DNA of 42,581 nucleotides from positions 1-42,581 of the IMG/VR virus record IMGVR_UViG_3300045988_019953; one strand, 5' to 3'. Below the pieces are notes generated by a model. The model did not search any database. It was not told the DNA's origin and worked only from the letters and a program-made list of their open reading frames with translations. Below are positions 4,074 through 42,581 of the stretch, piece by piece. The stretch comes from a virus (taxonomy: Duplodnaviria; Heunggongvirae; Uroviricota; Caudoviricetes). Numbering within the stretch: position 1 is the stretch's first letter; every line of letters begins with the position of its first letter. The position numbers and the translations under genes are program-made.

Positions 4074-4209
4074 TCTTTTTAGCCTCTCTTAACTGTTTAC
4101 GGTAGGCATTGAAGCATTCACGGCAATAACTGCGTGTGCCTTTTCTGTCATATCGTTTAAGGAACGCACCCTCTTCTTTTTCTTTCCTACACATCTGGCA
4201 AATCTTCAT
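4066..4209 (-). CDS. Small zinc-ribbon protein (47 aa, CxxC...CxxC; below track threshold)
   Basis: ATG at 4207-4209 with GAGGAG 8 nt upstream; two CxxC pairs (CQMC, CREC); stop overlaps next gene start. Confidence 0.5.
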   Translation of the reverse strand: MKICQMCRKEKEEGAFLKRYDRKGTRSYCRECFNAYRKQLREAKKNA

Positions 4210-4227
4210 CTAAATACTCCTCGGTTG

Positions 4228-4304: not shown

Positions 4305-4333
4305 TTGACTTTTCACTAAAAATGTGCTAAGCT
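4305..4333 (+). promoter_or_regulatory. Sigma70-like promoter TTGACT-17-TAAGCT driving conserved element copy A
   Basis: -35 at 4305-4310, -10 at 4328-4333; 28 of 29 positions identical to promoter at 15639-15667. Confidence 0.55.
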
Positions 4334-4339
4334 CCACCT

Positions 4340-4560
4340 GAGCTTGTGAAGTATGAACAAGCGACCGTGTCACGGCAGGAAACGGAGCGGGGCGTTAGCC
4401 CTGAGTGTAGTTTCGCTGACGCGTCCGGAAGGCCACTGGTCTATTGCAAAAATCCCCTAAGTTACATAAGTAACTAATTTTCCTTAAGTTTCTTAATGTG
4501 CTGTAGATTCGCAACCGTAAAAATGTAACGATTATTGGGCAGGCTTAAAGCCTGCCCTTT
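4340..4560 (+). ncRNA. Candidate structured small RNA, copy A
   Basis: Promoter-to-terminator unit with no ORF; about 115-nt core conserved with copy B, with two compensatory stem substitutions. Confidence 0.35.
4537..4560 (+). terminator. Rho-independent terminator (GGGCAGGCT-TAA-AGCCTGCCC plus TTT)
   Basis: 9-bp GC-rich stem followed by a short T tract. Confidence 0.55.
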
Positions 4561-4630
4561 AGTTACCAAGTAATAAGAATCTACGGCACAACCCAACCTG
4601 AAGAATCACAACGGCAACGTAACTAATCTC

Positions 4631-4659
4631 TTGCACACCCCAATATAATAGGATACTAT
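4631..4659 (+). promoter_or_regulatory. Early promoter TTGCAC-17-TACTAT with dyad AATAG-N4-CTATT (4647-4660)
   Basis: Hexamers with 17-bp spacer; 23-mer nearly identical to those at 15540 and 24940; conserved leader TCACTTATCGAAACGAG. Confidence 0.55.
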
Positions 4660-4693
4660 TCACTTATCGAAACGAGACTGAGGAGTGAGGGTT

Positions 4694-7360: not shown

Positions 7361-7625
7361 ATTATTCTGGTTCGGCGGTATGCTGGCAATCGGAGGCACA
7401 TCGCTGTTTAATGTGTATCACCCCGGCGTGGACGACGGTCTATTTGGCCGGGTGCTCTATATCCTGACCACTATCGTCTGTGCCGCCGGGTGTATCCACC
7501 TGTTACAGGGCAGCATGTCACCGACGCTGCCGGAGACATTAATCGCATTAGTTGCGCTGCGACAGATTCGTCAGGCGTGGCTGTCATACGGAGGACATAA
7601 GCGTGTCTCGAAACATTTCAGATAA
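7353..7625 (+). CDS. Second small membrane protein (holin/antiholin-like)
   Basis: ATG 7353 after GAGGAGG, overlapping upstream stop; two hydrophobic segments; track lists a longer 7272 start. Confidence 0.45.
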   Translation: MNELFWFGGMLAIGGTSLFNVYHPGVDDGLFGRVLYILTTIVCAAGCIHLLQGSMSPTLPETLIALVALRQIRQAWLSYGGHKRVSKHFR

Positions 7626-8106
7626 TGGATTGCATTTTACCGCCGCGTTTGAGGGATTCCGCGGAACTGCATACAAAGCAACAAAGAACGAAAAATACTG
7701 GACTATAGGCTGGGGTCATACCGGGCCGGATGTGTATGAAGGACAGAAGATTACTGAGGGTCAGGGGCTACTGTTGCTGAACCGTGATATGCGGTGGGCT
7801 GTGAAAGCAGTCGACGAGGTAGCACACCCCTCACTGACCCAAGCCCAGTTTGATGCCGTTGTCGACCTGGTGTTCAACGCAGGACCCGGCGTTATCGCGG
7901 CCAACACCGGAACCGGTAAGGCACTACGGCAGGGAGACATCTCCACCTTACGGCATAAGTTGAGCCAGTTCATCAACCAACGCAACCCGAAAACGGGCAA
8001 ACTCGAGCCTGTTCTCGGCCTGCGTCGCCGGACCGCCGGGCGTCTGGCGCTGTTCGACGGTAAACCGTGGCAAGAGGCTGAGGCTATCGGGAGGGCTGTT
8101 AAATGA
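7603..8106 (+). CDS. Endolysin, lysozyme-like (GH24-type) muramidase
   Basis: Motif EGFRGTAYKATKNEKYWTIGWGHTG; likely GTG start 7603 after GGAGGA rather than track ATG 7552. Confidence 0.8.
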   Translation: MSRNISDNGLHFTAAFEGFRGTAYKATKNEKYWTIGWGHTGPDVYEGQKITEGQGLLLLNRDMRWAVKAVDEVAHPSLTQAQFDAVVDLVFNAGPGVIAANTGTGKALRQGDISTLRHKLSQFINQRNPKTGKLEPVLGLRRRTAGRLALFDGKPWQEAEAIGRAVK

Positions 8107-15246: not shown

Positions 15247-15272
15247 AAAGGCCCCTTTCGGGGCCTTAGTTT
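15247..15272. terminator. Bidirectional rho-independent terminator (AAGGCCCC-TTTC-GGGGCCTT)
   Basis: 8-bp GC stem with A/T-rich flanks on both sides; between convergent genes. Confidence 0.65.
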
Positions 15273-15517
15273 TATCGCACTCTCATAAATAGCTTACCTT
15301 TGCGCTGTAACAAATCCATGCCAACAGCACCTTCACCAGATTTGTTCGGGCGGCGCATTAAACTAAAGTTCCATACTCTAGCTTTTGAAGCATCTTTCGC
15401 GTTGCACACCCAAAGTCTACCGCTTTCTCTTAGGTCAAATAAGTCCGATATACTGAAATTATTAACTGGTATGAATCCGCTAATGAACTCACGTTCACAA
15501 CTAGGTAATTCTTGCAT
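15272..15517 (-). CDS. Hypothetical protein, paralog B of 4876-5166
   Basis: 81 aa; ATG 15515-15517 with GGAGGG RBS; about 80 percent identical by eye to paralog A. Confidence 0.6.
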   Translation of the reverse strand: MQELPSCEREFISGFIPVNNFSISDLFDLRESGRLWVCNAKDASKARVWNFSLMRRPNKSGEGAVGMDLLQRKGKLFMRVR

Positions 15518-15543
15518 ACACCCTCCTCGTTTCGATGTAATGA

Positions 15544-15572
15544 ATAGTACCCTATTATATTGGTGTCTGCAA
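15544..15572 (-). promoter_or_regulatory. Early-type promoter on minus strand (TTGCAG-17-TACTAT) with dyad AATAG-N4-CTATT (15543-15556)
   Basis: 23-mer identical to 24940-24962 and a 1-mismatch reverse complement of 4639-4661; leader matches early promoter leaders. Confidence 0.55.
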
Positions 15573-15638
15573 ACTATTTATTTACTTATTCCAGTTATTC
15601 CACTCAATCGTAAATGTTGGAATAAACTATTTGAATAG

Positions 15639-15667
15639 TTGACTTTTCACTAAAAATATGCTAAGCT
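15639..15667 (+). promoter_or_regulatory. Sigma70-like promoter TTGACT-17-TAAGCT driving conserved element copy B
   Basis: 28 of 29 positions identical to promoter at 4305-4333. Confidence 0.55.
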
Positions 15668-15673
15668 CCACCT

Positions 15674-15870
15674 GAGCTTGTGAAGTATGAACAAGCGACC
15701 GCGGCGCGGGCAGGTAACGGAGCGGGACGTAAGTCCTGAGTGTAGTTACGCTGACGCGTTCGGAAGGGCCATACTCTATTGCTTGTGTAAAAAGTAACTG
15801 ATTTACTGAGATTGCGCCGTTTCTATGTTTAAATGATAAGGACTAGCGCCCCGCTTTACGGCGGGGCTTT
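15674..15870 (+). ncRNA. Candidate structured small RNA, copy B
   Basis: Conserved core shared with 4340-4450, bounded by promoter and terminator; no ORF. Confidence 0.35.
15848..15870 (+). terminator. Rho-independent terminator (GCCCCGC-TTTACG-GCGGGGC plus TTT)
   Basis: 7-bp GC stem followed by a short T tract; ends copy B just before the Rz-like gene. Confidence 0.5.
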
Positions 15871-15891
15871 ACTTATCGAGAAAGGAGAAAC

Positions 15892-16278
15892 ATGAATCTT
15901 AAAGCAACTGTCGTAGCGGGAGCATGTTTCATCATCCTGGCTTACACACACGGCATCTACCAGTACCGCAGCGGCTGGGCCGAAGGCCGGGCTAATCTCG
16001 TTTCGCAGCAACAGCAGAAAGCACAGGCTGAGTTAGCGAAGAAAACACAACGGCAGCAGCAGGATGAATCGAAGGCAGCCGCCGCTGACAACGAAGGCAA
16101 GACGAAATCAGAGGTGATTACCCGTGAAGTCGTTAAGTACATCAAAACGCCTGGCCGCAGCGTGTGCACTTTCGATGATGCTCGCGTCCTGCTCAAGTCC
16201 CGCGCCGTCACAAATGCCAACTCCATCCCCGGATATGACGATGATGCAGCCGCCGTGCAAACTGGCCCCGCCAAGTAG
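15892..16278 (+). CDS. i-spanin (Rz-like)
   Basis: 128 aa; N-terminal TM (VVAGACFIILAY), Q-rich coiled coil, periplasmic C-terminus; contains an out-of-frame lipoprotein ORF. Confidence 0.7.
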   Translation: MNLKATVVAGACFIILAYTHGIYQYRSGWAEGRANLVSQQQQKAQAELAKKTQRQQQDESKAAAADNEGKTKSEVITREVVKYIKTPGRSVCTFDDARVLLKSRAVTNANSIPGYDDDAAAVQTGPAK

Positions 16279-16387
16279 CGATGCTGACGAGGATTTAGCT
16301 ATCGACGTTCAGAATGCTGAATGCGTACGGCAACTGCGCTTGAAGGTGTTCATGTTGCAGGATTACGTGAGGAATATTCTGGAATAG
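16124..16387 (+). CDS. o-spanin (Rz1-like lipoprotein), overlapped with i-spanin in another frame
   Basis: GTG start after GAGGTG; signal peptide with lipobox LASC; proline-rich mature region. Confidence 0.7.
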   Translation: MKSLSTSKRLAAACALSMMLASCSSPAPSQMPTPSPDMTMMQPPCKLAPPSSDADEDLAIDVQNAECVRQLRLKVFMLQDYVRNILE

Positions 16388-16469
16388 TTGCCTTGCATGT
16401 TGGAATAATTTATTCTTGACATGTAAATCCGGGTGGCCCGGGTTCCAACGTCCAGGGGACATACTGACT

Positions 16470-18223: not shown

Positions 18224-18239
18224 GGTTAAGATATAATCG

Positions 18240-22748: not shown

Positions 22749-22772
22749 AAGGCCCCTTTCGGGGCCTTTTTC
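22749..22772. terminator. Bidirectional terminator (AAGGCCCC-TTTC-GGGGCCTT)
   Basis: Same 16-mer core as 15250-15265; T tract on plus strand, A/T-rich on the other side. Confidence 0.65.
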
Positions 22773-24913: not shown

Positions 24914-24943
24914 TTTAAACCCCTTCATTGTTGGTGTAAGTGA

Positions 24944-36276: not shown

Positions 36277-36763
36277 TGGGTCGTATTCCTTTGTCTAATG
36301 TTTCAAGTGCCGATACCCTGGCGGCTATTGCTTCTTCTCTTGTAGAGTAATAACCTAAATGCTTCTTTATTCCGTCAATAGTCATATACGCGGCCCATTT
36401 GTTATGCGACTCTCGCCACCTGACGCCAGGAAAGCCGCTTTTATTACTCGACCTAATTTTCTGCCATCCAGCTTTTGCGACGTTACCTTGTTGTGTCACT
36501 AACTGTAGATTTTCCAATCGGTTATCATCGTACACGCCATTTATGTGGTCAATTTGCATTCCTTCTGGAATCTTGCCGTTGTGCATCTCCCAGACTATTC
36601 TATGTGCTTGGTATATTTTACCTTTGAACTTAATACGCCTATGCCCCTTGTTTACCGAGCTTCCTGCTGTACTGCCTACCGATACTCTCGGCCTCGGTCT
36701 TACTCGCCAAATGAGGGCGCCGTTGTCGTAGGTGAATATCCTACCCCATGCTATTTCACACAT
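36269..36763 (-). CDS. HNH homing endonuclease, copy 3 of 4
   Basis: Motif MQIDHINGVYDDNRLENL plus KSGFPGVRW; RBS AAGGA. Confidence 0.8.
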   Translation of the reverse strand: MCEIAWGRIFTYDNGALIWRVRPRPRVSVGSTAGSSVNKGHRRIKFKGKIYQAHRIVWEMHNGKIPEGMQIDHINGVYDDNRLENLQLVTQQGNVAKAGWQKIRSSNKSGFPGVRWRESHNKWAAYMTIDGIKKHLGYYSTREEAIAARVSALETLDKGIRPNE

Positions 36764-42504: not shown

Positions 42505-42581
42505 TGGTCAATTAAATGCCGAGTTTTATGTTCGCAGTGCATAGCCCACCCATACATCGACTCGAAGACATAAAAGTCTGG
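42505..42581. repeat. Terminal direct repeat, right copy (identical to 1-77)
   Basis: Exact 77/77 identity with window start. Confidence 0.9.

Follow-up and report, generated by a model that had tools for sequence, protein, structure and literature searches.

What is transcribed from a promoter that stands between the head genes and the spanin genes of a tailed phage, and that recurs almost letter for letter in its early region? The question is raised by a genome from IMG/VR (record IMGVR_UViG_3300045988_019953); the whole stretch of DNA that was analyzed, 42,581 nucleotides, is called the window here. A preliminary description had taken the two places, copy A in the early region and copy B at 15639-15872, as two copies of a small-RNA candidate and had offered, as an alternative for copy B, a leader that regulates spanin expression. 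The joint description given below, which we hold at a probability of about 0.85, is that 15639-15877 is the ancestral form of a conserved, non-coding, structured RNA found throughout Guernseyvirinae as the leader of the spanin genes, and that copy A is a recombinant.

Organization of the locus

The genome belongs to the subfamily Guernseyvirinae and is nearest to Kagunavirus phages of Escherichia coli, with 93-95% identity over 900 nt. Phages of this subfamily, which includes Kagunavirus, Jerseyvirus, and Cornellvirus, are often used in therapy and biocontrol, and the BASEL reference set now contains them as well. The two ends of the window are an exact 77-bp duplication (1-77 = 42505-42581); this is an assembly overlap, and the genome is a circular or permuted one of 42,504 bp.

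The position proposed for copy B, between the head genes and the spanins and just upstream of an Rz-like gene, was borne out. The order on the plus strand is promoter, GC-rich segment, A/U-rich tail, GC hairpin, AAGGAG, and the ATG of Rz. The promoter is of the sigma-70 type (15639-15667), with the −35 element TTGACT at 15639-15644, a 17-nt spacer, and the extended −10 element TGcTAAGCT at 15659-15667; from this sequence, transcription is predicted to start at G15674 or A15675. The same layout (TTGACT, TAGACT, or TGGACT, then 17 nt, then TGnTAnnCT) is common to the J and C1 subtypes of the RNA. It is followed by a structured core of ~113 nt (15674-15786), defined with two covariance models (R1 and R2), covariation, and RNAalifold, and by an A/U-rich tail (15787-15847), whose first bases, GCUUGUG, repeat the 5′ arm of helix P1. 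The tail is partly kept between the K and J subtypes (AGAUUnCGCCGU, AUGUUUA). Next comes an intrinsic-terminator-like hairpin (15848-15877) with a stem-loop of 8 bp, 7 of them G-C, at 15848-15867 (−16 kcal/mol), followed by UUUACUUAUC; the terminator had been placed at 15848-15870, which is right to within 3 nt. A GC hairpin and then UUUA end both copies (4537-4557 in A, 15848-15867 in B). The hairpin of copy B ends 25 nt ahead of the first gene downstream, that of the Rz-like i-spanin, which spans 15882-16278 with its ribosome-binding site AAGGAG (15882-15887) and its ATG at 15892, and whose product is 64% identical to Rz of phage Jersey. The end of Rz is overlapped by an Rz1-like o-spanin gene (16244-16387, plus strand; coordinates carried over from Bas76_0009), at a place where an o-spanin is annotated in relatives.

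Just upstream of the copy B −35 element, GGAATA(A) occurs three times, once on the plus strand and twice on the minus strand, in what is a putative operator for a DNA-binding regulator (15586-15625). A second GGAATA cluster, followed by TTGACA, is found where Rz1 ends, ahead of the scaffold gene (16371-16408). Such clusters are confined to these two places in the genome, where they bracket the RNA-Rz-Rz1 unit, and all four window matches to TGGAATAA sit at 15586-15625 or at 16401. They are likewise restricted in Bas76 and, bar one extra site pair, in Jersey, and they are also present in C1-type relatives. The clusters look like an operator pair for a regulator; one candidate for binding to them is the Cro/CI-type HTH ORF (1090-1305). 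The RNA sits at the one recognizable entry into the spanin-head operon, with this apparent operator bracketing it. No GGAATA repeats are found upstream of the copy A promoter, and because these sites are present at B and missing at A, it is plausible that the two copies are in different timing contexts.

A leader of the spanin genes

The operon upstream of copy B stops at a bidirectional terminator (15248-15267), and the gene that follows it on the minus strand (15272-15517) has an early-type promoter of its own at 15541-15572. No promoter was recognized between the hairpin and Rz, or on the plus strand from 15.9 to 20.7 kb. Since no other promoter is recognized for Rz and Rz1, the RNA is their 5′ leader and, with no plus-strand promoter recognizable up to ~20.7 kb, their transcripts must cross both the RNA and the hairpin. 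Scaffold and capsid transcripts possibly start at the copy B promoter as well; there may also be an unrecognized, activator-dependent scaffold promoter at 16371-16423. In Cornellvirus, the RNA-Rz-Rz1 unit has minus-strand genes on either side.

The alternative that had been proposed, a leader that is read through into the spanins, fits this context well, with a minus-strand gene upstream behind a bidirectional terminator and 25 promoter-free nucleotides between the hairpin and Rz. It is also in keeping with the hairpins of relatives. In its U-tract, the K-type hairpin is similar to the terminator at 22749, which ends an operon; the U-tract is poorer in the hairpins of subtype J (UUAGCGUA), Jersey included, and in Cornellvirus-type hairpins, and no hairpin is seen by eye in Serratia phage Otaku. 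The terminator hairpin of copy B is probably leaky.

The minus-strand ORF at 15272-15517, which encodes 81 aa with no Pfam match, separates the head genes from the RNA unit. Neither phage Jersey nor contig L103 has it, and the ORF thus resembles an accessory gene of the moron type that was inserted there.

Fold of the core and its covariation

Five helices are proposed for the copy B core, all on the plus strand, and four of them are well supported by sequence comparison. These are P1 (15676-15681/15691-15696), P2 (15699-15702/15706-15710), P3 (15711-15718/15745-15753, with a bulged G15750), P4 (15723-15728/15733-15738, with a GUAA loop), and P5 (15759-15763/15769-15773, with the loop AAGGG); on the 3′ side, the core also has a conserved CUAUUGC (15776-15782). 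The helices were set by hand on a clean seed alignment to give model R1, and the alignment obtained from R1 gave model R2. R1 matched the other subtypes at E values of 1e-8 to 1e-11 for J and 0.01 for C1, and weakly for C2; R2 found C1 and C2 sequences outside its training set (E 6e-7 to 1e-3). In the model-fitted alignment, whose fitting to the structure somewhat inflates the covariation figures, standard pairs occupy 91.2% of cells and changes on both sides are seen in 21 of the 29 pairs; none of 500 shuffles equaled the observed pairing or covariation, and sliding the partners by 1-3 columns left 28-43% of cells paired.

RNAalifold recovered P1-P4 independently from the same alignment, and compensatory changes can also be read straight from the unaligned sequences. 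P5 (CGG-AAGGG-CCG) pairs well in J and C1 and weakly in K, with 72% paired overall. The G-U pairs are consistent with the plus strand alone. In every subtype, P1 starts at most a few nucleotides from the predicted 5′ end, and the invariant single-stranded bases are few (CGGAAGGG and CUAUUGC). Folding of single sequences beats shuffles weakly (z = −1.9 and −2.6), and the structural claims consequently rest on the comparative data. A plain MAFFT alignment across subtypes mis-paired the helices and left RNAalifold uninformative, and the hand-defined structure with model realignment was used instead. A long-range helix in place of P2, suggested by RNAalifold for the K group, was rejected, as the three changes in copy A fit the local hairpin (two are compensatory and one is in the loop).

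The bases after the core (15782-15788) repeat the 5′ arm of P1 (15676-15682), as GCUUGUG in K, GCUUUCAG in J, and CUUCG in C1; this repeat is absent in the early-locus copies. It is possible that the 3′ arm of P1 pairs with either repeat, which would give an alternative fold or a closing helix.

Distribution across phages

The K-type copy B core is 95-100% identical in 181 phage records (Escherichia, Salmonella, Raoultella, Shigella). In Salmonella phages that match the window at only 74-81% in Rz and 65-75% in the upstream flank, promoter and core are still 96-97% identical. A divergent homologue, the Jersey type (J), occupies the same position before Rz in 268 records, Jersey included; it consists of a −35 element TTGACT or TAGACT, a −10 element TGtTACGCT, hairpins, UUCGGAAGGG, AUUGC, a GC hairpin, and Rz. 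IMG/VR contigs and Cornellvirus genomes add the subtypes C1 and C2, also before Rz. In Otaku, there is a shortened look-alike that was recognized by eye and to which R2 gives no match. A predicted RNA of common architecture is thus present before Rz in K, J, C1, and C2 and is spread across Guernseyvirinae.

In Dhillonvirus, a more distant relative by Rz similarity, Rz comes directly after the head-morphogenesis gene without a leader, which indicates that the unit is a Guernseyvirinae insertion that made a new transcription start. Regarding phages outside the subfamily, re-scoring with R2 matched Guernseyvirinae contigs only among the IMG/VR pattern matches listed.

Origin of the two copies

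The similarity that had been reported between the copies is real. Their promoters are identical at 28 of 29 positions, a single base differing between 15639-15667 and 4305-4333, and promoter and core together at 130 of 142 (~92%), the shared segment recurring at 4305-4451. A search for direct repeats gave 94% for 4305-4375/15639-15709 and 85% for 4374-4447/15709-15782. The 3′ tails do differ, with 61 of 88 aligned bases identical and a separate GC-hairpin terminator in each copy. On the plus strand of the 42.5-kb window, the two copies are the only matches to a promoter-type regular expression, which has one unrelated minus-strand match at 27529, and the covariance model likewise matches only the two copies in the genome (E about 1e-27 and 4e-24). 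Thus, the two-copy pattern is not due to chance. Two differences between A and B at paired positions keep the pairing: CCGU/ACGG vs. CCGC/GCGG, and GGGGC/GCCC vs. GGGAC/GUCC.

Copy A has the promoter TTGACT-17-TGcTAAGCT at 4305-4333 and, at 4340-4451, a core with the same five helices (122.9 bits with R1, 109 bits with R2), in which P2, P3, and P4 show compensatory changes relative to B. Its tail and terminator (4452-4565, with the terminator at 4537-4557) are inherited from the resident early-locus RNA, not from copy B: 4488-4565 is identical at 76 of 77 positions to the early locus of Bas76, which is without a B-type core and has an unrelated promoter-hairpin-RNA instead. Judged by sequence, copy A is a chimera: the 5′ part of a different early-locus RNA has given way to a promoter and core of the B type, and the duplication is recent. 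The preliminary description had called B the second copy, and here the order has to be reversed: B is the ancestral, subfamily-wide form, and A is derived, having arisen by recombination and being carried by a minority of Kagunaviruses. The copy A junction of the window is found in ~27 records. In others, such as Golestan and G AB-2017, the early locus has a third, strongly covarying core variant, and neither R1 nor R2 found a second family member at the early loci of Bas76 and Jersey.

Exchange is also apparent elsewhere. Contigs L094 (C1) and L100 (C2) have one tail in common and different promoter-plus-core modules; this pair, and copy A compared with Bas76, indicate that the exchangeable unit is the promoter plus the core. 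Early-locus and B-locus tails have short motifs in common, in a weak alignment, and these could mediate the recombination of promoter-plus-core modules.

Several other features of the early locus can be mentioned. After the terminator of copy A, and ahead of the next gene downstream, comes a separate early-type promoter (TTGCAC...TACTAT, 4630-4662, plus strand). It is one of three copies of a promoter of ~32 nt, TTGCAcACcCCAATATAATAGGrTACTATTCA, found at 4630-4662 (plus), 15541-15572 (minus), and 24941-24972 (minus), each of which heads a transcription unit. Divergent from copy A is an ORF of ~44 aa (~4077-4210, minus strand) with CxxC...CxxC motifs, which is zinc-ribbon-like. Where copy A is lacking, the early locus has a unit of promoter, long-hairpin RNA, and GC hairpin (36297-36545 in Bas76, L002; 38860-39150 in Jersey, L003), which may be a second, unrelated family of non-coding RNA with a 3′ tail akin to the B-locus tail. 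In Golestan (L104), the early-locus RNA tail contains a CTCA/CACT microsatellite at 553-580, the length of which differs from that in G AB-2017.

Identities looked for

The window has no match in Rfam 15 at gathering thresholds, and more permissive searches, of 15550-15950 at E<=10 and of the loci of Jersey, Cornell, Otaku, and fBC type at E<=5, gave nothing relevant. With ARAGORN, neither the window nor phage Jersey yielded a tRNA or tmRNA gene. Phage horsemountain has an annotated 'tRNA-Ser', but this is on the opposite strand and covers the upstream terminator, not the RNA. In a blastn search for host-RNA mimicry, the RNA had no match in 5,426 complete E. coli genomes. When 10 ORFs, nearby or early, were scanned against Pfam, no domain of an antiterminator or RNA-binding protein was detected; the matches were one Cro/CI-type HTH, DUF551, and an endolysin (7552-8106). 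No description of the RNA was found in the literature, where one Kagunavirus RNA-seq paper covers annotated genes only. As far as checked, the RNA family is previously undescribed and absent from Rfam 15, although its general type, that of phage leaders or small RNAs, is familiar.

Other identities were rejected on the basis of the RNA itself. A 37-codon ORF, annotated in some records as a 'hypothetical protein' of 36-38 aa, does not have a conserved reading frame, since one-base indels (GCGGGCAGG vs. GCGGCAGG) shift it between copy A, copy B, and the variants L008, L018, and L024; it has no ATG in subtype J and no ribosome-binding site. This database annotation is corrected whether the RNA acts in cis or in trans. 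An Hfq-type base-pairing sRNA does not fit U-runs of only 3 (K) or 2 (J), with ~91% paired in the helices and few conserved single-stranded bases. A transcriptional riboswitch with an overlapping platform was rejected because, by inspection, K and J share no conserved core-terminator complementarity and cores have been swapped onto foreign tails and terminators. Resemblances to CsrA sites, SRP RNA, hammerheads, boxA/boxB, and kink-turns were looked for by eye, and none is conserved across subtypes.

Possible modes of action

The core is always at the predicted +1 and moves with the promoter onto unrelated sequences, and core-terminator pairing is not conserved; both observations argue for action on its own transcription complex or transcript. 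The leading proposal, held tentatively and at clearly less than even odds, is that of a cis-acting read-through element similar to the put RNA of phage HK022. In such a mechanism, host RNA polymerase would start at G15674/A15675, and the nascent core would fold and act in cis on its own elongation complex, setting the level of transcription past the hairpin at 15848-15867 and past later terminators, for instance that at 18239. The action would be like that of put RNA, or like that of a nut-type site if a phage protein takes part, and terminated transcripts would leave an RNA of ~195 nt, as lambda PR′ leaves 6S RNA. If the RNA does control read-through, no more than one or two natural classes of antiterminator RNA would precede it, and synthetic biology would gain a compact and portable part.

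This cis model is favored by the fact that the two copies head two long rightward operons, as do putL/putR and nutL/nutR (PMC9378689). By contrast, it is weakened by the observation that most relatives carry the B copy alone, R2 giving no second member in Bas76 or Jersey. It is also weakened by the early-locus promoter at 4630-4662, which follows the terminator, so that read-through would be needless there; the arrangement looks more like that of a free-standing RNA gene. Moreover, if the antiterminator is constitutive, a terminator right behind it would serve no purpose, except where read-through is regulated or the short RNA itself is needed. Lambdoid Q control involves a −10-like pause element in the first ~25 transcribed bases; the sole candidate here is AAGTAT, at +10 to +15 in K, which has no counterpart in J.

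Alternatively, the RNA may be a stable, structured molecule of ~195-225 nt that acts in trans, as 6S RNA, CsrB, or an anti-defense decoy does, by binding a macromolecule of the host or the phage and sequestering or redirecting it, with leaky read-through into the spanins as a secondary effect. This reading ranks just below the cis read-through element and is almost as likely, and it would make the RNA a candidate for host takeover or anti-defense. It is consistent with the RNA having its own promoter and, in the K subtype, a credible terminator, and with the layout of copy A, which is bounded by a promoter and a terminator while the genes behind it have another promoter. The early loci of other phages hold different promoter-RNA-hairpin units, like exchangeable cassettes of RNA genes, and a second copy without GGAATA sites would give an earlier or higher dosage. 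A conserved host target would agree with the near-identity of the RNA in phages of Escherichia, Salmonella, Raoultella, and Shigella, and the heavy covariation with few invariant unpaired bases suits a fold-dependent binder better than a seed-pairing sRNA. Nevertheless, the RNA is always directly 5′ of Rz, and its terminators are weak in the J and Cornellvirus types or, in Otaku, absent by eye; this constant position, together with the weak or absent terminators, points to selection that retains co-transcription with Rz. Furthermore, the RNA is without a long U-tail or an A/U-rich Hfq module, and no similar sequence in E. coli genomes suggests mimicry of a host RNA.

A wider proposal, to which we give a little less credence than to a put-like element or a trans-acting RNA, is that the core represents a new class of RNA that reprograms host RNA polymerase through a fold unlike those of put and EAR, and that it serves as the late-operon switch of this entire subfamily of virulent enterobacterial phages, alone or with a small phage protein. 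Promoter plus core would in that case form a portable 'read-through cassette' that phages swap by recombination. A fold-dependent decoy that captures a conserved host factor is its sibling reading.

Another explanation, which we regard as unlikely, is a 5′ stabilizer or processing module, in which P1 and the compact fold shield the long leader and the mRNA behind it from Rho and from 5′-end-dependent decay by RNase E, with no specific ligand. P1 does lie close to the predicted 5′ end throughout the subtypes, the leader (220-300 nt) is untranslated, G-rich, and highly structured, and independence of downstream sequence matches the observed swaps of modules. However, one hairpin would suffice for this purpose, and four more covarying helices, the invariant CGGAAGGG loop region, and the 95-100% identity across hosts are left unexplained.

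Less probable still is a riboswitch or protein-responsive attenuator, with the core as an aptamer for a metabolite, ion, tRNA, or phage protein that sets termination at 15848-15867. In favor of it, the RNA has several helices that meet in a junction and is part of a 5′ leader with a terminator behind it, and the two possible partners of the P1 3′ arm (the 5′ arm or the post-core repeat) suggest alternative folds. Yet manual inspection found no conserved antiterminator pairing between core and terminator, cores are exchanged independently of tails and terminators, and the junction nucleotides vary between subtypes. The core also ends ~60 nt before the hairpin, too far for a steric 'tug-of-war' (bioRxiv 10.64898/2026.06.17.733018). 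In addition, there is no match to an Rfam riboswitch.

Finally, a DNA-level element (a transcription-primed replication origin or a recombination hotspot) with an incidental RNA fold is highly improbable. Three observations favor it: a strong promoter followed by a G-rich and then an A/T-rich segment is also the arrangement of the origin modules of T4 and T7, the minimum of cumulative GC skew (~4 kb) is where copy A lies, and module boundaries are recombination junctions. However, that minimum coincides with the switch in gene orientation and is hence uninformative, and the compensatory changes in 21 pairs, with G-U pairs that fit the plus strand only, indicate selection on a single-stranded, plus-strand fold.

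Comparison with known systems

The put RNA of HK022 suppresses pausing and termination in cis, without any protein, via the zinc-binding domain of the β′ subunit. It comprises ~70 nt in two stem-loops that form a V shape, with a triplex in stem I (PMC9378689). It and the RNA described here are both structured RNAs at or near the start of a sigma-70 transcript, and both exist as two related copies with compensatory differences at operon heads (PMC9378689). Both have terminators downstream and share an independence from downstream sequence, which is predicted for the copy B RNA. In contrast to put, the RNA in the window has ~113 nt, five helices, and three branch points, a distinction that is drawn from the published description of put and not from its sequence, and most relatives of the window phage have one copy only.

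Lambda PR′, in the late control region with tR′ and the Q antiterminator, yields a terminated 6S leader of ~195 nt directly before the lysis and head genes. The series of promoter, ~195-nt leader, terminator, Rz/Rz1, and head genes is similar here. However, there is no Q-like annotation in Bas76 and no such Pfam match in the 10 ORFs scanned, the lambda leader is without a conserved covarying fold, and in the window the holin and endolysin genes lie elsewhere. As in the lambda N/nut system, there are paired cis RNA sites downstream of promoters; the P4 loop is a GNRA (GUAA) in K, C1, and C2, and CUCUAUU loosely recalls boxA. Nevertheless, the RNA is much larger than nut, its P4 loop in J is not a GNRA, the resemblance to boxA is weak and not conserved, and no arginine-rich, N-like protein was identified among the 10 ORFs scanned.

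The eps-associated RNA (EAR) of Bacillus promotes processive read-through and is, like the RNA described here, a structured leader RNA of roughly 110-120 nt, but it belongs to another host clade and context, and no Rfam match was obtained here (EAR included, if in the library). As with lambda oop, P22 sar, and DicF, the transcript is short and lies between a promoter and an intrinsic terminator. Those RNAs, in contrast, pair through accessible seeds, whereas the RNA in the window is dominated by helices, has a short U-tail, and is tied to the downstream gene.

Other structured sites in the late region

The leader of the tail operon (24997-25079), located after an extended −10 element TGcTAGAAT, contains a nested GC hairpin (UGCGCC...GCGGG-UGGUU-CCCGC...GGCGCA) that is not of the copy A/B RNA family. 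The strongest intrinsic-terminator-like site of the late region is at 25632-25655, with 9 bp followed by UUUUUAUA, in the plus-strand tail operon before the tape-measure gene. This site could be an attenuator, or it could be related to the chaperone frameshift region.
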